Assembly: GCA_050298595.1 (NCBI GenBank) | Contig: JBNKUM010000028.1 | Location: forward strand, 1-64,000 | Direction: 5' to 3' | From: Gammaproteobacteria bacterium | GTDB lineage: Bacteria; Pseudomonadota; Gammaproteobacteria; GCA-001735895 | DNA length: 64,000 nt | In this document: piece by piece, positions 10,640 through 54,779 of the stretch | Layout of the letters: each line of letters opens with the position of its first letter | Numbering within the stretch: position 1 is the first letter of the stretch | Made by a program: the position numbers and the translations under genes | The notes under the pieces: model-generated | What the model saw: the letters and a program-made list of their open reading frames with translations, nothing else | The model's database searches: none | What the model was told of the DNA's origin: nothing

Positions 10640-12433
10640 ATGTCAGATCAACAATCCCCTTTTCAGGATGTCTCAGGTTTTACTTCAATTTCTCAGGGAA
10701 TCGAAGCAAGTTACAAACTGGCTGAACAACTTCTACAGCAGTTTAGTCTGCAATCAGAGAAATCAGACTATGATCCACTGAGGATGGGTGATGTTTATAA
10801 AGAGCTTTTTGCTCGCATGAATGAAAATCCGCAAAAGGTTTTAACTGCCAATATTGATTACTGGAAACAGAGCCTGGAACTGTATCAGAATTTTCTGCAA
10901 GCGTTAATGACGCAACAACCTCTAGAAGCTAGCATCGAAGAAGACAAAACAGATCGTCGCTTTCGTCATGAAGGTTGGCAGCAGCCCTCTTTCGCAATAA
11001 TAAAGCAATCTTACCTGCTGTTATCACAACATATGCTTCGACTGGTAAAGGAAACCGAAGGCCTGGATGAAAAAACCGCACAACGTGCAGAGTTCTTTAC
11101 CCATCTATATTTAAATGCCTTATCACCAGGTAACTTCGCGGCTACTAATCCTGCGGTACTGGAAAGAGTCATCGAAACTCACGGTATGAGCCTGCTGCAC
11201 GGACTTAAAAATATGATGGAAGATTTGCAGCGAGGTAGAGGCAAGTTGCAAATCAGCATGACCGATTATAGTGCTTTTGAACTGGGTAAAAATGTAGCGA
11301 CCACCAAAGGTAAGGTGGTTTACGAGAATCGAATGTTTCAGCTGATTCAATACAGCCCAAGCACTGAAAAGGTTAACAAGACACCGCTGCTGGTGGTACC
11401 ACCCTGGATCAACAAGTACTACATCCTTGATCTGCAGGAAAAGAATTCACTCATGCGCTGGTTGGTAGAACAGGGTCACACGGTATTTATTATTTCCTGG
11501 GTTAATCCTGATGAAAACTATTCCGAGGTGGGTTTTACGGAATATATGAAAGAAGGCGTGCTGAGCGCCATCGATCAGGTCAAACAGGCCACTGGTGAAA
11601 AAGAAATTAATGCCATTGGCTATTGCATTGGTGGGACATTACTGGCCACAACCCTTGCCTACATGGCAGCACATGATGATAATAGAATAAAGAGCGCAAC
11701 CTTCCTCACCTCTATGATCGATTTCTCCGAGCCGGGTGAGCTCGGCATGTTTATTGATGAGGAACAACTCCGTTCACTGGAACAGAAGATGGATAAGGAC
11801 GGCTATCTTGATGGTGCAAGCATGTCTGGCACCTTTAACCTGTTACGTTCAAATGATTTGATCTGGTCTTTCTACATCAACAATTACCTGATGGGCAAAG
11901 ATCCGCGCGCGTTTGATCTGTTGTACTGGAATTCAGACGCCACACGTATGCCCGCAAAAATGCATAAATGGTATCTGAGAAATCTATATCTCTACAACAA
12001 GCTGGTAAAACCAGGTGAGCTGATCATAGATGAAACGCCTATCGATTTAAGTAAAATTAAAACTCCGGCACTTTTTATATCTACTCAAGAAGATCATATC
12101 GCGCCGTGGAAATCCACATGGATGGGTGCTCAAAACCTCTCTGGCCCAGTTAAATTTATACTGGGTGGATCCGGCCATATCGCCGGTATAGTAAATCCAC
12201 CTGCGGCTAACAAATACGGTTATAAAATGACCGCAGCTAAACTACCCAAAGATGCACAGGCCTGGGCCGATAAAGCAACACAACATGAAGGATCATGGTG
12301 GCCTGAATGGGATAAATGGGTAAGTAAATATTGTGGAGAACAAATTGATGCAAGACACCCTGGGGACCATCAGTTAAAAATAATAGAAGATGCACCCGGC
12401 CGATATGTAAAAACAAAAATAGTTAATATATGA
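10640..12433 (+). CDS. phaC: Class I poly(3-hydroxyalkanoate) synthase
   Basis: 597 aa; 'DRRF', 'PPWINKYYILDL', lipase box GYCIGG, 'DHIAPW', 'SGHIAG', 'GSWWP'. Confidence 0.96.
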   Translation: MSDQQSPFQDVSGFTSISQGIEASYKLAEQLLQQFSLQSEKSDYDPLRMGDVYKELFARMNENPQKVLTANIDYWKQSLELYQNFLQALMTQQPLEASIEEDKTDRRFRHEGWQQPSFAIIKQSYLLLSQHMLRLVKETEGLDEKTAQRAEFFTHLYLNALSPGNFAATNPAVLERVIETHGMSLLHGLKNMMEDLQRGRGKLQISMTDYSAFELGKNVATTKGKVVYENRMFQLIQYSPSTEKVNKTPLLVVPPWINKYYILDLQEKNSLMRWLVEQGHTVFIISWVNPDENYSEVGFTEYMKEGVLSAIDQVKQATGEKEINAIGYCIGGTLLATTLAYMAAHDDNRIKSATFLTSMIDFSEPGELGMFIDEEQLRSLEQKMDKDGYLDGASMSGTFNLLRSNDLIWSFYINNYLMGKDPRAFDLLYWNSDATRMPAKMHKWYLRNLYLYNKLVKPGELIIDETPIDLSKIKTPALFISTQEDHIAPWKSTWMGAQNLSGPVKFILGGSGHIAGIVNPPAANKYGYKMTAAKLPKDAQAWADKATQHEGSWWPEWDKWVSKYCGEQIDARHPGDHQLKIIEDAPGRYVKTKIVNI

Positions 12434-12445
12434 GGGGGAGTAAAA

Positions 12446-13168
12446 ATGGGAAGAGTTGCAGTAGTTACAGGTGGTACACGTGGCATAGGTGAAGAAATTT
12501 GCCTGTCATTAAAAAAAGCAGGATACAATGTAGCGGCAACCTATGCAGGTAATGAAGCCTCTGCAAAAGCTTTTACCGAAGTTACAAAAATACCAACATT
12601 CAAGTTTGATGTAGCTGATTTTGATGCCTGTCATAAAGGGGTCGCAGCCATTGAAGCCGAACTAGGTCCGATAGAAGTACTGGTTAACAATGCGGGTATT
12701 ACCAGAGATACCACCATGCACAGGATGACCTTCGAGCAGTGGAATGAGGTCATTCAAACCAATCTGTCATCCTGCTTTAATATGTGCCGTGCGGTTATTG
12801 AAGGCATGCGTGAACGTGAGTTTGGTCGTATCGTGAATATCGGTTCAATCAATGGCCGTGCCGGTCAGTATGGTCAGGTAAACTATGCAGCAGCTAAATC
12901 CGGTATTCATGGATTTACCAAGGCACTGGCACAGGAAGGTGCAGCCAAGGGTATTACTGTAAACGCGGTCGCCCCAGGTTATGTGTTAACAGATATGGTG
13001 CGAGCAGTTCCAGAAAAGGTACTGGAAAAGATTATTGCACGTATCCCGGTAGGCCGACTGGGAGACCCGGAAGATATCGCGCGCACTGTCATGTTTCTGG
13101 TAGCGGATGAAGCGGGCTTTATCACCGGCTCTACACTAGATGTTAATGGTGGCCAGCAGATGTATTAA
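12446..13168 (+). CDS. phaB: Acetoacetyl-CoA reductase (copy 1)
   Basis: SDR 'TGGTRGIG', 'NNAGITRD', 'GQVNYAAAK'; directly after phaC. Confidence 0.93.
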   Translation: MGRVAVVTGGTRGIGEEICLSLKKAGYNVAATYAGNEASAKAFTEVTKIPTFKFDVADFDACHKGVAAIEAELGPIEVLVNNAGITRDTTMHRMTFEQWNEVIQTNLSSCFNMCRAVIEGMREREFGRIVNIGSINGRAGQYGQVNYAAAKSGIHGFTKALAQEGAAKGITVNAVAPGYVLTDMVRAVPEKVLEKIIARIPVGRLGDPEDIARTVMFLVADEAGFITGSTLDVNGGQQMY

Positions 13169-46908: not shown

Positions 46909-46936
46909 AAAAAGAAAGCCGCATTAAGCGGCTTTC
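46907..46936 (-). terminator. Terminator of glcB (possibly bidirectional)
   Basis: GAAAGCCGC-attaa-GCGGCTTTC with an A-run on the left. Confidence 0.8.
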
Positions 46937-46959
46937 CCTGAACTTTAAGTGACAAAATA

Positions 46960-49134
46960 TCAGACCTGTTTTGCTTTTAATCGGTACTTTTGCAACAGGT
47001 CTTCGGTATATCCATTAGCGGATTCAGCACCCTGTAAAACCAGTTGCAAAGCCGCTTCAAATGCAACACCGTCAAATTTCGGTGCCATATTCCTGTAACC
47101 CGGCGTTGTGCTATTTTGCTTATCAACCACCTTGGCCATACGCTTAAAAGTTTCGACTAGCTGTTGTTCAGTACATATGCCGTGTAATAGCCAGTTTGCC
47201 ATATGCTGGCTGGATATACGGAGCGTAGCGCGATCTTCCATCAGGCCAACATCATGGATATCGGGAACCTTGGAACAACCTACACCCTGATCTATCCATT
47301 TCACTACATAACCCAATATGCCCTGGGCATTATTATCAAGTTCCTGCTGGATTTCACTGTCAGATAATTTACGCTTTTTAGGTAATAAAGGAACCGTCAA
47401 TATATGATCTATATTGGCACGATTTCTCAGTTTAATCTTTTGCTGTTCCTGTTTCACATTAACACTATGGTAATGCAAGGCATGTATTACCGCTGCGGTA
47501 GGTGAGGGAACCCATGCGCAATTTGCTCCGGCTTCCGGGTGTACCTGTTTACTGTCGTACATGGCTTTGATTTGGTCTGGTACCGCCCACATACCTTTAC
47601 CTATCTGCGCAACGCCATCCAGCCCACACATTAATCCGGTGTCAACATTCCAGTTTTCATAGGCTTCCATCCAGCGTTCACCTTTGATTTCTCCTTTTGG
47701 TAGCATGGCACCAATCTTCATGCTGGTATGAATTTCATCGCCGGTACGATCAAGGAATCCGGTATTAATAAAAATAACTCTTTCCTTAGCCTCTCTGATA
47801 CATTCTTTCAGGTTTACAGTGGTTCTTCTTTCTTCATCCATAATACCGATTTTTACGGTATTTTTCGGCAGACTGTAGGCCTCTTCAATGGCATCAAATA
47901 AGCGGCAGGTAAAAGCTACTTCTTCTGGGCCATGCATCTTCGGCTTTACGATATAGATGCTTTTTGTACGGCTATTATTGTATGCATGACGCTTACAGAT
48001 ATCGTACAACGAAATCAACACCGTGATTAATCCGTCGACCAGGCCTTCCGGCATCATTTGATCTTTTGCATCCAGCACCAGATCAGTCTTCATATGCATG
48101 CCTGTATTCCGCACTAGCATCAAACTGCGCCCTGGCAGGCTGAATGGCTCACCCTTCTTATTGCAGTATTCACGATTTGCGTTTAATACTCTGGTAAATG
48201 ATTTGCCATCCTTGCGCATTTCAAAACACAGTTCGCCATGCACTAATAGTCTCCAGTTACGATAGACCAGCATTTTATCTTCTGTATCTACCGCTGCTAC
48301 TGAATCTTCACAATCTTCAATGGTGGTAACCGCAGCTTCCAGAATTATATCGGTTAATCCTGCTGGATGATGCTGGCCTATGATGCTTTTCTTGTTGATT
48401 CTAAGTTCAAAATAAAGGTCATTATGAATAAATAAAAGTACCAGATCTCCGCAATGTGAATAGCCTTTAAATTGATCTGCATCCTGCAACTTGACTCTTA
48501 CACAATTGTCCAGTTTAAAGAAAGGTCGCTCTATGCCCATGATCAGTTCAAGGCCGTATTCTTTAACTTCTGCATGAGAAACGCCACCTTGTAGCGGTAG
48601 TACCTTATCCAGCCATTGGGTACAGAAATCAAATACTGCCTGACCACGCGCTTTATTGTATTGCTTACCAATAGCTGTTTCGCCTTCGTTGGCAATCATG
48701 TCGGTACCATACAGCGCATCGTATAGACTGCCCCATCTTGCATTCGCTGCATTTATTGCAAAGCGTGCATTATTGATGGGAACCACCAGTTGAGGGGCAG
48801 CTACACTTGAGATTTCACGATCAATATTTTCAATACTGACCTTAAAGTCTTCTTTTTCGGGAACGATATAACCAATTTCATTGAGAAATTGCTTATAGTT
48901 ATCCAGATCGTCTGCTTCGTATTTATTCTTCTTATGCCAGCCATCTATCTGCTGCTGGATTTCATCTCTTTTGTTTAATAACGCAGTATTCACTTCACTA
49001 AAAGTGGTCATTATGGATTCGAAATTTTCCCAATAACTCTGCGAATCCATTTCCAGTTCAGGCAAAACCTCTGTATTGACGAAATCAACCAGTGACTGTG
49101 CAACCTTAATCTTTTTTAAATGTATATATGACAT
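46960..49134 (-). CDS. glcB: Malate synthase G
   Basis: 724 aa; 'NAANARWGSLYDALYGTD', 'DCEDSVAAVD', 'KPKMHGP', 'MDEERRT', 'MEDRATLRISSQ'. Confidence 0.97.
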   Translation of the reverse strand: MSYIHLKKIKVAQSLVDFVNTEVLPELEMDSQSYWENFESIMTTFSEVNTALLNKRDEIQQQIDGWHKKNKYEADDLDNYKQFLNEIGYIVPEKEDFKVSIENIDREISSVAAPQLVVPINNARFAINAANARWGSLYDALYGTDMIANEGETAIGKQYNKARGQAVFDFCTQWLDKVLPLQGGVSHAEVKEYGLELIMGIERPFFKLDNCVRVKLQDADQFKGYSHCGDLVLLFIHNDLYFELRINKKSIIGQHHPAGLTDIILEAAVTTIEDCEDSVAAVDTEDKMLVYRNWRLLVHGELCFEMRKDGKSFTRVLNANREYCNKKGEPFSLPGRSLMLVRNTGMHMKTDLVLDAKDQMMPEGLVDGLITVLISLYDICKRHAYNNSRTKSIYIVKPKMHGPEEVAFTCRLFDAIEEAYSLPKNTVKIGIMDEERRTTVNLKECIREAKERVIFINTGFLDRTGDEIHTSMKIGAMLPKGEIKGERWMEAYENWNVDTGLMCGLDGVAQIGKGMWAVPDQIKAMYDSKQVHPEAGANCAWVPSPTAAVIHALHYHSVNVKQEQQKIKLRNRANIDHILTVPLLPKKRKLSDSEIQQELDNNAQGILGYVVKWIDQGVGCSKVPDIHDVGLMEDRATLRISSQHMANWLLHGICTEQQLVETFKRMAKVVDKQNSTTPGYRNMAPKFDGVAFEAALQLVLQGAESANGYTEDLLQKYRLKAKQV

Positions 49135-49151
49135 TACCTGCTACCTACGAA

Positions 49152-50150
49152 TTACTTTTTTGTGGGTTTACCCGACATGGAATTTAAAAACTGCTCAGCC
49201 TGTTCACGCCATTGATCCTGAAAAACCTTCCCTTTTGTCTGTAGTTCACCATCCAGATTCCTGAGCATTTCATCTGACATAGAAGCTAGTTGATTCAAAT
49301 TGTTAACACCCTGCTGGTGCAGCTTTTCATTAAATTTCTGCCCGATACCATTAAGTACCGTGAAGTCATCTGCTGCCGCTTTCAATGCTTCCTGATCTGG
49401 CGTTTTTTCACTCAATTCCCTGATTTGTTTCTGTAATGATTCTAGCTGCATTTGCATAGCATGATAGGTTTTTTCAGTGACAAGTCCCAGGCTCTGTGCG
49501 AGGGTTTCACGGTACTGCTCTTTATCATCGGCCAGTTTGGCCTGTACCATTTCCAGTTTTTTCTGTAACTCCTGATAAGCCTCGCTCGTTTTCGATTCTT
49601 CAAAAACAGATTGCGTAATCTCTGCCCACCACTGTGGCACATTGTTTAGATCCTGTTTATCCTTTTCGTTCACCTTTTTCTGCAATTTTTCCAGACTATC
49701 GATGGCTAACTGCGCCATTAAATGATTGATCTCCATCGATATCTGCTGGTAATCCTTGATTGAATTCATTAGGTCTTCTGCCTTACTACGCTCATCGTCA
49801 CTGAACAGTCCCTGCATCATGCTGATAAAAGGCGATTGCAAACTGCTCATATCGGGAACATCTGGTATCTTGAAAGGATTCTGTAACTGTGATTTAAATT
49901 GATCATTCATCTGCTGGTAGAGCGTGTTCATCGAACTCATGTCTGCCAGTGGCCAGCTATTCATCGGGTTTTGCATCTGAGCAAATGGATTGGCTGATGC
50001 ATTACCCGGCATCCAGGCCTTAAACATCTGTTCCATCGGATTTGCAGGTGCCTGTGGTTGCATCATTTGCTGTAAATTCTTCATATACTGCTGTTGCAGA
50101 TTGTACAACTGGGCCAGGTAATCCTGACCTTCATTCTTATTCTCTGGCAT
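49152..50150 (-). CDS. Degenerate PhaE-like protein fused to a C-terminal helix-hairpin-helix domain
   Basis: Q/M-rich helical N-part; 'WWAEITQSVFEE...SEAY...LGLVTEK...LESLQKQIREL' resembles the PhaE C-region; 'DDFTVLNGIGQK...LHQQGV...QLA...W.EQA' HhH (COG3743-like); divergent from phaA. Confidence 0.7.
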   Translation of the reverse strand: MPENKNEGQDYLAQLYNLQQQYMKNLQQMMQPQAPANPMEQMFKAWMPGNASANPFAQMQNPMNSWPLADMSSMNTLYQQMNDQFKSQLQNPFKIPDVPDMSSLQSPFISMMQGLFSDDERSKAEDLMNSIKDYQQISMEINHLMAQLAIDSLEKLQKKVNEKDKQDLNNVPQWWAEITQSVFEESKTSEAYQELQKKLEMVQAKLADDKEQYRETLAQSLGLVTEKTYHAMQMQLESLQKQIRELSEKTPDQEALKAAADDFTVLNGIGQKFNEKLHQQGVNNLNQLASMSDEMLRNLDGELQTKGKVFQDQWREQAEQFLNSMSGKPTKK

Positions 50151-50197: not shown

Positions 50198-50212
50198 TGT
50201 TGCACCGCAACA
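50198..50212. promoter_or_regulatory. Putative PhaR operator between phaE-like and phaA
   Basis: TGTTGC-acc-GCAACA palindrome with a TGC-N3-GCA core. Confidence 0.65.
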
Positions 50213-50347
50213 ATTATTCATGCTTAAATATATCGGATAATTTCAATACAAATTATGTAGCAGGACCTGTGAACACTAAATATATAAACATTGTATTTAG
50301 GGGCAGTGAATCATCCTGATAAATTAATAACAAGAGGTTTTATAACT

Positions 50348-51535
50348 ATGTCTGAATCTATTGTCATCACTCATGCCACAAGAACCGCCATTGGCGCCTT
50401 TGGGGGGGCTTTGGCCAGTGTTTCTGCTGTTCAACTCGGCGCAACGGTCGTTAAATCATTGCTCGAGCAATCTGGAGTTTCAGCGGATCAGGTTGATGAA
50501 GTCATTTTAGGCCAGGTTCTGACAGCAGGTGCGGGGCAAAATCCCGCGCGTCAAACCGCTTTAGCTGCCGGGCTACCCGATACTTCCTCAGCCATGACCA
50601 TCAACAAGGTATGTGGCAGTGGTTTGAAAGCCGTTCATCTGGCTTTTCAATCCATAAGCTGTGGCGATGCCGATATCGTCATTGCAGGTGGCCAGGAAAA
50701 TATGAGCATGTCCGCGCATGTGCTGCCCAAATCACGCAATGGCAAGATGATAGGTAACTGGGAGCTGGAAGACAGTATGATCGTTGATGGCCTTTGGTGT
50801 GCAATGAATGATATTCACATGGGCATTACCGCTGAAAATATTGCAGAACAATTCTCTCTGACCCGTGACGATCAGGATGCTTTTGCTGCTGCTTCACAAC
50901 AAAAGACTGAAGCTGCTCAGAGTGCAGGTAATTTTGATCATGAAATCACACCTGTTTCTATCCCGCAACGCAAGGGCGATCCGATCATCTTCAGTAAAGA
51001 CGAATTTCCACGTGCCGGTACAACCGCTGAAAAGCTCGGTGGCTTACGCCCTGCGTTCAAGAAAGACGGTACCGTTACTGCGGGTAATGCGTCGGGTATT
51101 AACGATGGCGCGGCGGCGGTTATGGTGATGAAAGAATCCAGGGCTAAAGAGCTTGGCCTGAAACCAATTGCACGTATAGTTGCTTTCTCCAGCGCTGGCG
51201 TTGATCCAAAGATTATGGGTACTGGACCGATTCCTTCTACCCAGAAATGCCTCGAAAAAGCAGGCTGGGATATTTCTGATCTTGATCTGATCGAAGCTAA
51301 CGAAGCTTTTGCTGCGCAGGCGCTTTCGGTTAATAAGAGCCTGGGCTGGGACACCGATAAGGTTAATGTCAGTGGTGGTGCTATTTCAATAGGCCATCCT
51401 ATTGGTGCTTCCGGTGCTCGTATTCTGGTAACCCTGTTACACGGTATGCAACGTAAATCAGCTCGAAAAGGGCTTGCTACTCTGTGTATCGGTGGTGGTC
51501 AGGGTGTTGCAATGGCCGTAGAATTGATAGATTAA
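50348..51535 (+). CDS. phaA: Acetyl-CoA acetyltransferase (beta-ketothiolase)
   Basis: 'NKVCGSG', 'NEAFA', 'GHPIGASG', 'CIGGGQG'; GAGG RBS before MSES. Confidence 0.95.
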   Translation: MSESIVITHATRTAIGAFGGALASVSAVQLGATVVKSLLEQSGVSADQVDEVILGQVLTAGAGQNPARQTALAAGLPDTSSAMTINKVCGSGLKAVHLAFQSISCGDADIVIAGGQENMSMSAHVLPKSRNGKMIGNWELEDSMIVDGLWCAMNDIHMGITAENIAEQFSLTRDDQDAFAAASQQKTEAAQSAGNFDHEITPVSIPQRKGDPIIFSKDEFPRAGTTAEKLGGLRPAFKKDGTVTAGNASGINDGAAAVMVMKESRAKELGLKPIARIVAFSSAGVDPKIMGTGPIPSTQKCLEKAGWDISDLDLIEANEAFAAQALSVNKSLGWDTDKVNVSGGAISIGHPIGASGARILVTLLHGMQRKSARKGLATLCIGGGQGVAMAVELID

Positions 51536-51553
51536 TCATCTCTAATTAGTGAT

Positions 51554-51582
51554 GCCGCGCATCTTGAGCTAAGATGCGCGGC
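51554..51582 (+). repeat. GC-rich hairpin between phaA and phaR
   Basis: GCCGCGCATCTT-gagct-AAGATGCGCGGC, 12-bp stem, no U tail. Confidence 0.7.
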
Positions 51583-51604: not shown

Positions 51605-52078
51605 GTGTCAGAATCCTGTGATAATGAACGTCTCATAAAGAAATACCCGAACCGTCGCTTATACGATACTCAGGATAGTCGTTATATCACCCTTGACGAC
51701 ACCAAACAGATGGTTATAAACAACATACCGTTTAAGGTTGTAGACCAGAAAACCGGCGAAGATCTAACCCGTAGCATTCTGTTACAGATCATCCTGGAAC
51801 AGGAAAATAATAACGAACCGCTATTCAATAGCAATATTCTGTCCGAATTTATCCGCAACAATAGTCAGACAAATCGAGATTATTTCTCCAGCTTTTTACA
51901 GGCCAGTATGCAGTTATTCTCTGAGCAACAGGGTACTCTGGTGAACCAGATGGATAAGGTTTTCAAGAATTCTCCGATGGATTTCTGGATGCAAATGACC
52001 AGTCAAAACCTTGAGAAGCTAACAGAATTACAGAGCAAATTTTTTAAAAAAGGATCTTCTGAAGAATCAAAAAAATAA
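51605..52078 (+). CDS. phaR: PHA synthesis repressor
   Basis: 'IKKYPNRRLYDT..S.YITL', 'GEDLTRSILLQII.EQE'. Confidence 0.95.
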   Translation: MSESCDNERLIKKYPNRRLYDTQDSRYITLDDTKQMVINNIPFKVVDQKTGEDLTRSILLQIILEQENNNEPLFNSNILSEFIRNNSQTNRDYFSSFLQASMQLFSEQQGTLVNQMDKVFKNSPMDFWMQMTSQNLEKLTELQSKFFKKGSSEESKK

Positions 52079-52169: not shown

Positions 52170-52227
52170 TTGACAATTTTCCGATCAGACATACTATTTG
52201 TGCAGCGCAGCATTGTGCAGTGCACAA
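52170..52227 (+). promoter_or_regulatory. sigma70 promoter of the phasin gene with two PhaR boxes
   Basis: TTGACA-N16-TACTAT (52170-52197), then GTGCAGCGCAG (52200-10) and TTGTGCAGTGCACAA (52213-27). Confidence 0.8.
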
Positions 52228-52274: not shown

Positions 52275-52673
52275 ATGACTAACCCTACAGTTGAATTATT
52301 TTACGAATACAACACGAAAGCGATGGAAGCCATGCGTGCTTTCGGTGATCTAAACGTTGCAACTGCTCAGTCTTTCATCAACAAGCAGGTTGAACTAACC
52401 AATGCAATCGTTGAAGCAACTCTGGCTACTAGCAAAGAAATTGTTTCTGCTAAAACTCCTGTTGATGCAATGCAGGCTTCTAGCGCTCTGATGCAGACTG
52501 TATCTTACAGTGTGACTGGTTTTGTTAAAGAGTCAGCTGCTGACGCAGTTAAAACTCGCGACGAACTGAAAGTAGCTATCGATGACGCAGTCAAACTGAA
52601 CAGTGTATATGCAACAAAAGCTTTCGATACCAGCGTAGAGGTTGTTAAGAAAACTGCTAAAAAAGCTGCTTAA
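52275..52673 (+). CDS. phaP: Phasin (PHA granule protein)
   Basis: Ala-rich amphipathic helical protein ending 'KKTAKKAA'; between phaR and phaB; PhaR boxes upstream. Confidence 0.8.
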   Translation: MTNPTVELFYEYNTKAMEAMRAFGDLNVATAQSFINKQVELTNAIVEATLATSKEIVSAKTPVDAMQASSALMQTVSYSVTGFVKESAADAVKTRDELKVAIDDAVKLNSVYATKAFDTSVEVVKKTAKKAA

Positions 52674-52846: not shown

Positions 52847-53593
52847 ATGTCAAAGAAAGTTGCATTAGTCACTGGCGGTACCGGCGGAATCGGAACAGCA
52901 ATCTGTGAAGCCCTTGCATCAAGCGGTCACAGCGTTGTTGCTAACTATTTCCCTGCTGATAAAGAAGCAGCCGAAAGCTGGTTAGACGATATGCAAAGCA
53001 GAAATGCCGATGTACATATTGCTCCTGCCGATGTGACCAGTTATGAAGAATGCGGCGAAATGGTTCAGTTTATTGAATCCAGTGTTGGACCTATCGATGT
53101 ACTGGTGAACTGTGCCGGCATCACTCGCGACAAAACCTTAAAGCGTATGACTCCTGATCAGTGGACAGCGGTTATCAACACCAACCTGAACAGTGCATTC
53201 AACGTAACCCAGCATGTAGTCAGTGGTATGACCGAGCGTGGTTTTGGTCGCATCATTAATATTTCATCGGTGAATGGCCAGAAAGGTCAATTTGGTCAGG
53301 CTAACTACTCAGCTGCGAAAGCTGGCTTACATGGTTTCACCATGTCAGTAGCCCAGGAAACTGCATCTAAAGGCGTTACTGTAAATACCGTATCACCTGG
53401 ATACATCGAAACAGCTATGACCAGCGCCATGCCTGAAGAAGTGCTTAAAGCCATCGTCAGTGCCGTTCCTGCGGGACGCATGGGCAAGCCTGAAGAAATC
53501 GCTAATACTGTTGCCTGGTTGGCCGATGCGCAAAATGCCTACACTACCGGCGCCAATATTCCTGTTAATGGCGGCATGTTTATGTCTGCCTGA
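52847..53593 (+). CDS. phaB: Acetoacetyl-CoA reductase (copy 2)
   Basis: 'TGGTGGIG', 'NCAGITRD', 'GQKGQFGQANYSAAK'. Confidence 0.94.
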   Translation: MSKKVALVTGGTGGIGTAICEALASSGHSVVANYFPADKEAAESWLDDMQSRNADVHIAPADVTSYEECGEMVQFIESSVGPIDVLVNCAGITRDKTLKRMTPDQWTAVINTNLNSAFNVTQHVVSGMTERGFGRIINISSVNGQKGQFGQANYSAAKAGLHGFTMSVAQETASKGVTVNTVSPGYIETAMTSAMPEEVLKAIVSAVPAGRMGKPEEIANTVAWLADAQNAYTTGANIPVNGGMFMSA

Positions 53594-53834: not shown

Positions 53835-54779
53835 ATGAGCATTTCTCCCCCTTGTTATAAACAGAATCGTCTGAAGCAGCTGCGCGCCTTCTGTAAAGCC
53901 GTCGAAACCAAGAGCATCTCAAAAGCAGGTGAAGAGTTATTCCTCTCACAGCCGACTGTATCGCTACAGATACGTGCACTGGAGCGAGAGCTATGTGTTC
54001 AGGTATTCGAACGTCGTGGCCCCGTTATTAATCTGACTCCCGATGGTCAAATACTCTACGAACTCTCCAAGCCGTTAATCAGTGGTATCGATAATCTTTC
54101 GCAAAATTTTAATAGCTTAGCCGGACGTATGGAATCGGGTGAGCTGCACATTACTGCAGGGCAGACCGCCTGTATGTACCTGCTACCCAAATACATCAGC
54201 AAATTCAGGGAAGAATACCCCAGTATTCACGTCAAATTATCCAACAATACCGGCAAGGAAGGTCGCGCTCTACTTAAGTCCGATAATGTTGATTTTGCAG
54301 TGGGCACCATGGCTGATAATAGTGACGATATGGTTTTTGAACCATTACATGAATTTGAGCCCGTTTTGATCATGCCGGTAGATCACCCTCTGGCGAGGAG
54401 TAAGGACATTACGCTACAGGATATCTCTCCTTACGGGCTGATTCTGCCTCCGCGCGAATTATCCACCTGGCGCAAGGTGGACAAAATATTTAACGAAAAT
54501 AATGTCCCTTACAAGGTGTCGATGGAAGTCGGTGGCTGGGAAGTGATAAAAACCTACGTAGAAGAAGGCATGGGGGTTTCGATCGTTAGCTGTCTTTCAT
54601 TAACCGGCAAGGAAAACCTGAAAGCAATATCTCTCGCTAAATACTTCCCCAAGCAAGTGTATGGTGCAGTTATCCGTAAAGGAAAATTCCTCACCCCGCA
54701 GGCACGTGGATTTCTGGAAATACTATCTTCCGATCTATTTGACGAATCTTGCGATAAGAAGATCGTTAACGCAAAGTAA
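53835..54779 (+). CDS. LysR-family transcriptional regulator (CysB-like substrate domain)
   Basis: 'LKQLRAFC...SQPTVSLQIRALERE...FER' HTH; 'GGWEVIK.YV..G.GVS'. Confidence 0.92.
   Translation: MSISPPCYKQNRLKQLRAFCKAVETKSISKAGEELFLSQPTVSLQIRALERELCVQVFERRGPVINLTPDGQILYELSKPLISGIDNLSQNFNSLAGRMESGELHITAGQTACMYLLPKYISKFREEYPSIHVKLSNNTGKEGRALLKSDNVDFAVGTMADNSDDMVFEPLHEFEPVLIMPVDHPLARSKDITLQDISPYGLILPPRELSTWRKVDKIFNENNVPYKVSMEVGGWEVIKTYVEEGMGVSIVSCLSLTGKENLKAISLAKYFPKQVYGAVIRKGKFLTPQARGFLEILSSDLFDESCDKKIVNAK

Follow-up and report, generated by a model that had tools for sequence, protein, structure and literature searches.

A gene on the reverse strand of the window, which is the whole 64,000-nucleotide stretch of contig JBNKUM010000028.1 (Gammaproteobacteria bacterium) that was analysed, encodes a protein of two parts. 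Profile comparison identifies residues 1-258 as a PhaE that has diverged strongly, PhaE being the subunit without catalytic function in class III polyhydroxyalkanoate (PHA) synthases, and the remainder forms a C-terminal helix-hairpin-helix (HhH) domain. This protein, which has no class III PhaC partner in its genome, and its full-length homologs are hereafter called the orphan. A role as a nucleoid tether, associated with PHA granules or with the synthase, is favoured with moderate confidence. Genomes, loci and proteins used for comparison carry G, L and P numbers, with G000 the genome of the window, and the features discussed are collected in Table 1.

The orphan is a real gene under strong purifying selection. 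A database search returned 40 full-length homologs of the open reading frame (ORF), of 332-404 residues and 33-100% identity, which begin at the same place and cover it completely. When 24 family members were aligned (A1), the N-terminal start was common to the members and the C-terminal HhH block nearly invariant; the conserved motifs of residues 1-113 are LQQQY, NPF and W66. The ratio of nonsynonymous to synonymous divergence (dN/dS) was 0.062 between the window and L004 (dS 0.49) and 0.046 between the window and L006 (dS 1.6). By region, the ratio was 0.075 in the N-terminal part, 0.051 in the helical core and 0.063 in the tail. The frame is intact in all seven carrier genomes of the genus. 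Within a sample of 300 Gammaproteobacteria genomes, the full-length orphan was present only in G000.

The original prediction had described the central part of the ORF as resembling the PhaE C-region, with the conserved LPTR-like box reading LVTEK, and profile comparison bore the likeness out. Pfam family PF09712 matched residues 7-246 over profile positions 83-310 of 311, a borderline pass at 26.6 bits against a cut-off of 25.7 (E 4.4e-6). The NCBIfam PhaE model TIGR01834 gave 30.1 bits, short of its cut-off of 154.95, and 27.5 bits in the genome search. Bona fide PhaEs were gathered with the latter model among the 300 Gammaproteobacteria, 35 of which exceeded the cut-off. An hhalign comparison of A1 with 23 of these PhaEs, a set from which unpublished genomes were left out, gave a probability of 99.6% and an E-value of 7.6e-25 over 352 columns. 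It sets the PhaE consensus nmPTRxE on the family sequence LGLVTr, the box in the window protein reading LGLVTEKTY (residues 221-229) in place of the conserved PhaE form, and also aligns residues 1-113 to the PhaE N-terminal region. A hidden Markov model (HMM) built from the N-terminal part of the family alone picked the PhaE ORF in 12 of the 12 top PhaE loci, or in 10 of 10 when the unpublished L030 and L032 were removed. The top three Atlas clusters for the orphan were PF09712 at 0.83-0.84, which serves as a lead only. A tree of PhaE domains recovers the family as a single clade (100/100), whose stem measures about 1.8 changes per column. Compared with PhaE of the Allochromatium vinosum type (PF09712/TIGR01834), the orphan is thus homologous over nearly the whole PhaE length and shares the genomic slot divergent from phaA together with an upstream site of the TGC-N3-GCA type. 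It differs in its box (PTR to VTE), its very long branch, its score (30 bits against 155) and the lack of a class III PhaC, adjacent or elsewhere in the genome, where a class I PhaC and glcB are found instead.

The HhH assignment of the C-terminal domain, with its quoted motifs (DDFTVLNGIGQKFNEKLHQQGV...QLA...WREQA, residues 261-318), likewise held. A G-I-G hairpin lies at residues 268-270 and WREQAE at residues 314-319, and the h-x-G-h-G hairpin reads LNGIGQK in A1. Among NCBIfam models, NF045508 ('phasin PhaH') matches best (E 1.1e-12, residues 187-322), and the tail regions of the NCBIfam NuoE, L21 and S2 models match the same stretch. G000 contains exactly one match to the PhaH model. Of 401 Pseudomonadota genomes the model matched 98, never above its cut-off and nearly always by way of positions ~100-233. 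Against the Protein Data Bank (PDB) the tail matched by sequence chains 8yy9_O (E 9e-9) and 9wqv_a (E 3.6e-5). The former is the RC-LH1 protein-O of D. shibae; the domain is unresolved in that structure, and the authors term the function of the domain "obscure" (PMC12079452). In the full-length AlphaFold2 (AF2) model, long helices span residues ~115-225 at a predicted local distance difference test score (pLDDT) of 70-85, and residues 1-113 score below 50. Modelled alone from a 43-row alignment, the C-terminal domain reached a pLDDT of 77.8 with five helices. Foldseek returned no PDB match to this domain model at E<=0.001; its top sub-threshold rows were the HhH modules of Hel308, the Y-family polymerase thumb and RadA/Rad51. 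VIA-align gave middling Z values for NusA AR domains (7.2-8.1), PolQ (8.0), PolX (7.2) and the Rad51 N-domain (7.2). From these models an (HhH)2-like five-helix fold is a reasonable assignment. Net charge was uninformative, the domain standing at about -1 in most groups and at -3 in alphaproteobacterial matches to the PhaH model. As a separate observation, the domain-only matches of the representative protein search described below are headed by giant proteins with 20-22 tandem HhH copies (P0042, 3115 residues; P0044, 3033 residues).

The ORF is divergent from phaA-phaR-phaP-phaB, all four of which lie on the forward strand, and the malate synthase gene glcB starts 17 nt past its stop codon (ATG at 49134, TAA at 49152-49154), both as first described. 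In G758, a genome of the same genus, the corresponding locus (L085, 1260-6741) is a classical cluster, phaC(III)<-phaE | phaA-phaR-phaP-phaB, with a canonical, tail-less PhaE; both synthase classes therefore occur within one genus. Elsewhere, phaA is divergent from phaE in at least 6 of the 21 class III loci fetched with flanks, and L045 and L047 have the order phaC(III)<-phaE-HhH | phaA. In the sister genus 15 of 61 genomes gave weaker matches to the PhaE part only, and the three loci inspected (L082-L084) have a canonical phaE beside a phaC of class III size. Because the congener and these relatives show the classical cluster at this place, the orphan occupies the place of phaE, and glcB that of phaC, in agreement with the positional claim made for this locus.

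The loss of class III phaC, also proposed at the outset, was supported by the genome searches. The best TIGR01836 match in G000 scored 150 bits against a cut-off of 365 and lay inside the class I PhaC, and none of the five other orphan-carrier genomes searched had a match over the cut-off. The class I PhaC is the sole PHA synthase of G000 (a single PhaC_N match in a genome 98.6% complete), and no protein of the TIGR01837 type (PHA_granule_1) was found in that genome. Since the position of the locus matches that of classical clusters, one of them in the same genus, the simplest history suggested by the comparison is that class III PhaC was lost and PhaE was kept and changed. The order to which the window belongs comprises one family and four genera. 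Half of the 14 genomes of the window's genus carry the orphan: it occurs in seven of the eight with a PhaC frame of class I size, the eighth being only 74% complete, and in none of the six without one. Because these genomes are kin, the co-occurrence cannot be read as a statistical test. The phaC(I)-phaB2 pair of L007 and L009 directly adjoins the phaB-P-R-A cluster.

The tail is not confined to the orphan. A search of 1.84 billion representative proteins with the family profile gave 4252 matches at E<=0.001, mostly other HhH-domain proteins, and single-stretch, near-full-length matches to canonical PhaEs were among them. In a Pfam scan of 16 such proteins, eight exceeded 200 bits on PF09712 and 11 had HHH_5 at E<=0.001. 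Thirteen representative proteins of other lineages combine PF09712 with the tail, ten of them at 147-221 bits, and the HhH HMM matched all 13 proteins kept as HhH-bearing rows of the tree. Database names for proteins of this make-up, from a Chromatiaceae metagenome-assembled genome (MAG) and an uncultured Thiotrichaceae, are of the form 'class III ... PhaE subunit'. Among the 33 examined genome places over the PhaE cut-off (31 without unpublished genomes) two have the tail, L045 and L047, both from one genus. The L047 PhaE scores 192 bits, over the cut-off, and is followed directly by a class III PhaC of 548 bits. These canonical PhaE-HhH proteins (L045/G617, L047/G411, P0067, the P0100 cluster including the Chromatiaceae MAG, and P0101 of Thiotrichaceae) share the two-part architecture of the orphan, match its family profile over the full length in a single stretch and have the divergent phaA; unlike the orphan they reach full PhaE scores, precede a class III PhaC directly and are annotated simply as PhaE. 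The original prediction had proposed a repurposing of PhaE after the loss of class III phaC, but the tail is not a product of such repurposing: tailed canonical PhaEs stand directly upstream of class III PhaC in L045 and L047, and the 13 further proteins have the same combination.

A third carrier of the tail is class I PhaC. In the list of 120 homologs of the window's class I PhaC, 63 have a C-terminal HhH at about residues 630-695 (among P0251-P0337), with a median length of 702 residues against 597. Their sources are Sedimenticola, Sedimenticolaceae and Thiotrichaceae. One of them, P0263 from Sedimenticola hydrogenitrophicus, scores 772 bits as class I and has PhaH-, L21- and NuoE-type matches at residues 595-692. 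The 33 closest listed homologs (at least 62% identity), including the kind found in the genus of the window, are tail-less. No PhaC-HhH was found in the sample of 300 Gammaproteobacteria, and the pattern therefore comes from the protein database search. An HhH tail on Haloferax PhaC is remarked upon in PMC12028471; a literature search turned up none that treats PhaE-HhH or the PhaC-HhH of bacteria. In class I PhaC-HhH (P0263 and others) and Haloferax PhaC the same type of tail is thus attached to PHA synthase machinery, but there it is fused to the catalytic subunit, whereas the orphan is a separate PhaE-derived protein beside a tail-less class I PhaC. The tail is accordingly seen on three PHA synthase parts, namely the orphan, canonical PhaE and class I PhaC, and in the genus of the window it sits on the orphan while the class I PhaC lacks it. 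As a side observation, a Lys/Ala/Pro-rich linker stands just before the HhH in P0319 (a Thiotrichaceae PhaC-HhH) and in P0029 (an orphan-family member) only. These linkers presumably resemble the histone-like tails of PhaF and AlgP, in which case two DNA-binding devices would stand in series.

A single origin of all HhH-bearing PhaEs was considered, and strict monophyly was rejected by an approximately unbiased (AU) test (p 0.0156), for a group that was named after inspection of the tree and included one long-branch row. Without two long-branch rows the tail labels require three changes against a minimum of two. Because the join of the orphan clade with P0092, the nearest intermediate, was flagged as a possible long-branch artefact, the tree does not place the clade, and hence a donor lineage, reliably.

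Upstream of the orphan lies the palindrome TGTTGCACCGCAACA, whose core is conserved in seven of seven promoter loci of the family (alignment A2), down to 37-43% protein identity. A like site is found upstream of the canonical phaE of L085 and of the phaE-HhH of L047. Of the 31 TGC-N3-GCA matches in the window, four fall within the ~405-460 bp of pha intergenic DNA, where by our arithmetic ~0.2 would be expected, and the sites upstream of phaR and phaP look like candidate PhaR operators. PhaR boxes, described from Alphaproteobacteria, contain GC-N3-GC or TGC-rich repeats (PMC10888616). From this likeness the orphan gene is possibly under PhaR control. By eye, the palindrome overlaps a weak -35 element (TTGCGG), followed after 17 nt by an extended -10 element (TGnTAGGGT), a promoter that was not called by the scan tool. 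The divergent promoter region also holds a second dyad, conserved as a block in most of the seven A2 loci, for which the syntenic lysR gene (53835-54779) offers a candidate binder.

Downstream, the orphan and glcB are probably co-transcribed, since their spacer is 17 nt long, the terminator scan found no terminator-like site within it, and a strong one follows glcB. The order orphan then glcB is seen in the window and in L004, L005, L006 and L008, and glcB adjoins the cut 3' end in L010; the sequence of L009 stops 240 nt past the orphan, before any glcB position. The linkage is not fixed in the family, as in L007 the orphan is followed by a convergent gene and not by glcB. At the other side of the promoter region, the listed TTG start of phaA (50291) is likely too far upstream, the thiolase domain beginning at residue 24; the true start is probably an ATG (MSESIVI...) near 50349.

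Table 1. Features of the window and of two comparison loci (positions in nucleotides; those of L045 and L047 refer to their own sequences).
Feature	Position	Strand	Basis or remark
Class I PhaC, 597 aa, no HhH tail	10640-12433	+	TIGR01838, 774 bits vs 622.65
phaB2, second phaB-like (acetoacetyl-CoA reductase-like) gene	12446-13168	+	Directly after class I phaC
Intrinsic-terminator-like hairpin, 12 pairs and T run, just after glcB	46911-46939	-	Terminator scan
glcB, malate synthase G	46960-49134	-	NF002825, 1078 bits vs 565
Orphan PhaE-HhH gene	49152-50150	-	ORF of 332 aa plus stop, ATG start
(HhH)2-type C-terminal domain, aa 259-332	49155-49376	-	NF045508; NuoE, L21 and S2 models; PDB sequence matches; AF2; VIA-align
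Helical PhaE core, aa 114-258	49377-49811	-	PF09712, hhalign, AF2 helices
Degenerate PhaE box LVTEK, aa 223-227	49470-49484	-	A1 and hhalign
Q/M/P/N-rich N-terminal region, aa 1-113	49812-50150	-	A1 invariant columns, composition
Palindrome of 15 nt, core TGC-N3-GCA, putative PhaR-type operator	50198-50212	.	48-62 nt upstream of orphan start codon
Second dyad ATAATTT-N6-AAATTAT	50237-50256	.	Conserved block in A2
phaA, acetyl-CoA acetyltransferase (thiolase)	50291-51535	+	ORF and profile matches
TGC-N3-GCA site upstream of phaR	51553-51561	.	Pattern search
phaR	51605-52078	+	TIGR01848, 124.7 bits vs cut-off 109
Two tandem TGC-N3-GCA sites upstream of phaP, at 52201 and 52216	52201-52224	.	Pattern search
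phaP (Phasin_2)	52275-52673	+	PF09361, 46 bits
phaB, acetoacetyl-CoA reductase	52847-53593	+	TIGR01829, 373 bits
Canonical PhaE with HhH tail, L045	3716-5017	-	Directly upstream of class III PhaC, divergent from phaA
Canonical PhaE with HhH tail, L047	3704-5050	-	Directly upstream of class III PhaC, divergent from phaA

Taken together with what is known of granule tethers, these observations are consistent with the following scheme. The orphan would descend from the non-catalytic subunit of a class III synthase whose partner was lost; it has diverged very fast and is still held by strong selection. It would reside on the surface of the polyhydroxybutyrate (PHB) granules made by the class I PhaC, kept there by its PhaE-derived helical part through contact with the polymer or with the synthase, while the HhH domain would link the nucleoid, by non-specific binding, to the granules or to the complex of synthase and nascent granule. 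The tail would here be supplied in trans, where relatives fuse it to a PhaE beside class III PhaC or to class I PhaC. Expression would come, together with glcB, from a promoter whose conserved TGC-N3-GCA palindrome is similar to reported PhaR sites. The sequences show the homology, the domain make-up, the selection, the synteny, the absence of class III PhaC and the recurrence of the tail on synthase parts, whereas the location on granules, the binding to DNA, the control by PhaR and the co-transcription are inferred. The proposal that PhaE was repurposed as a granule-nucleoid tether thus survives in part, the tether being the best functional guess and the HhH tail not being tied to the loss of PhaC.

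A close analogy is PhaH of Caulobacter crescentus, reportedly characterised by Salinas et al. in 2023 (Molecular Microbiology 120:307, doi 10.1111/mmi.15124) as an HhH phasin that ties granules to DNA. PhaM of Cupriavidus necator and PhaF of Pseudomonas putida are likewise granule-nucleoid tethers, as the orphan may be, with other DNA-binding tails; PhaM also activates class I PhaC1. In PMC13052382 and PMC12678847, PhaH is described as an HhH phasin linking granules to DNA, and the former attributes to its C-terminal HhH non-specific DNA binding and to its loss disorganised granules. The C-terminal HhH of the orphan belongs to the same sequence family, and the scheme proposed for the orphan is alike, with the N-terminal end at the granule and the C-terminal end at DNA. 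The N-terminal parts differ, however: the granule-binding part of PhaH has no match in the orphan, where this part is PhaE-derived. Membership of the orphan in PhaH was rejected, the NF045508 match being at the domain level only. PhaM and PhaF, for which histone-like Lys/Ala/Pro tails are described (PMC13052382), differ further in having such tails and no HhH, and neither is a PhaE homolog; the window protein has no histone-like Lys/Ala/Pro-rich tail.

Several observations weigh against a tether of this kind or against parts of the argument for it. The P of the PhaE box is replaced by V in 24 of 24 family members, and its R by E in the subclade of the window, R occurring only in distant members. 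The PDB sequence search returned no PhaE chain, the PhaE part matching only unrelated proteins at chance level (E>=0.01), and the full-length AF2 model was poor (mean pLDDT 53) and was set aside for the fold search. The PhaH model was matched at profile positions 97-232 only, with 48.6 bits against a cut-off of 250. NusA AR domains, which bind proteins and not DNA, are among the best structural neighbours of the tail. The tail domain itself is slightly acidic (net -1), and the window protein has no basic linker, linker and tail together having a net charge of -1 and no KPA repeats. DNA binding by such a domain is reported for PhaH (PMC13052382) and is not known for other carriers; the domain also occurs on NuoE, L21, S2 and RC-LH1 protein-O, where its function is termed obscure (PMC12079452). 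As for the promoter region, the window holds a single copy of the strict form TTGC-N3-GCAA where 2.17 would be expected, no more than chance, and with three mismatches allowed the count of the palindrome is likewise not above chance; the weight of the palindrome comes from its conservation across loci and not from its count. Lying between divergent genes, it could also serve phaA instead.

Alternatively, the orphan may still be a synthase subunit, its PhaE-derived part binding class I PhaC and activating or priming it in the manner of PhaM towards PhaC1 of C. necator or of PhaE towards class III PhaC, so that catalytic help and not tethering would be under selection. The two functions are compatible. 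The distribution in the genus (seven of eight genomes with a class I-size PhaC, none of six without), the phaC(I)-phaB2 pair that adjoins the cluster in both L007 and L009, the selection on regions outside the tail, and the tail of relatives on class I PhaC itself, a hint of the Rosetta-stone type that the tail works at the synthase, all point this way, and class III synthases need canonical PhaE for their activity. Class I synthases, however, show activity by themselves, the PhaE part has changed greatly (about 1.8 changes per column on the stem) and has a degenerate box, and co-occurrence in one genus is not independent evidence. Activation as the selected function is regarded as rather unlikely.

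Less likely again is a granule-surface scaffold or phasin in which the (HhH)2 domain is a protein-protein adaptor that docks another partner and has no role at DNA. The appearance of the same domain on NuoE, L21, S2 and RC-LH1 protein-O (PMC12079452), the NusA AR1/AR2 domains as top structural neighbours (Z 7.2-8.1) and the slightly acidic character of the domain speak for such an adaptor. Further neighbours, on the other hand, are DNA-binding HhH domains (Hel308, PolX, the Rad51/RadA N-domain and the Y-family thumb), Z values of 8 or below not being discriminating. Some PhaC-HhH proteins and members of the family have K/A/P-rich linkers next to the domain. The only such domain characterised on a PHA protein is that of PhaH, for which DNA binding is reported (PMC13052382).

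A role with malate synthase, in which the orphan would recruit or couple GlcB, and hence the glyoxylate shunt, to PHB granules during mobilisation, is improbable. It would account for glcB lying directly after the orphan in the window and four other loci and at the cut end of L010 with no terminator between the genes, and an isocitrate lyase family match is present elsewhere in the genome; but adjacency alone is weak, the orphan of L007 has no glcB, and canonical PhaE-HhH is followed by phaC and not by glcB. Finally, a decaying relic of the lost class III operon without present function is scarcely credible: the borderline Pfam score, the 30.1 bits against 154.95 on the NCBIfam model and the degenerate box would fit it, but a pseudogene was rejected, decay being excluded because dN/dS is low (0.046-0.062) and alike in all three regions, with the frame intact in seven carriers and the C-terminal block and promoter palindrome nearly invariant.

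Set beside these alternatives, the granule- or synthase-associated nucleoid tether remains the preferred role for the orphan, and a bolder extension of it can be offered tentatively. HhH tails on PHA synthase parts may be a widespread design, unrecognised in the searchable literature, that anchors the synthase itself, besides a phasin, to the nucleoid, the orphan being an adaptor in trans that physically binds class I PhaC. This extension is possible but doubtful; if true, it would be the first partnership of a PhaE with a class I synthase and a case of a class III subunit re-used after a swap of synthase class. The original description of an undescribed type of PHA accessory protein was overstated, as Caulobacter PhaH is reported to be an HhH granule-DNA tether (PMC13052382 and PMC12678847), and the basic idea of tethering through an HhH domain of a PHA protein is thus in print already. 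The locus bears on how granules are placed and on how synthases start them. Three tethers are known, PhaM, PhaF and PhaH, to which it would add a fourth route, in which a synthase subunit with a PhaH-type domain has persisted after a class I synthase took over from its class III partner. Canonical PhaE and numerous class I PhaCs bear the same tail, and the comparison therefore further suggests binding of the whole synthase complex to the nucleoid in many Gammaproteobacteria that oxidise sulfur. An orphan PhaE, if it acts on class I PhaC, would also give PHA engineering a new means of influencing the number and size of granules.

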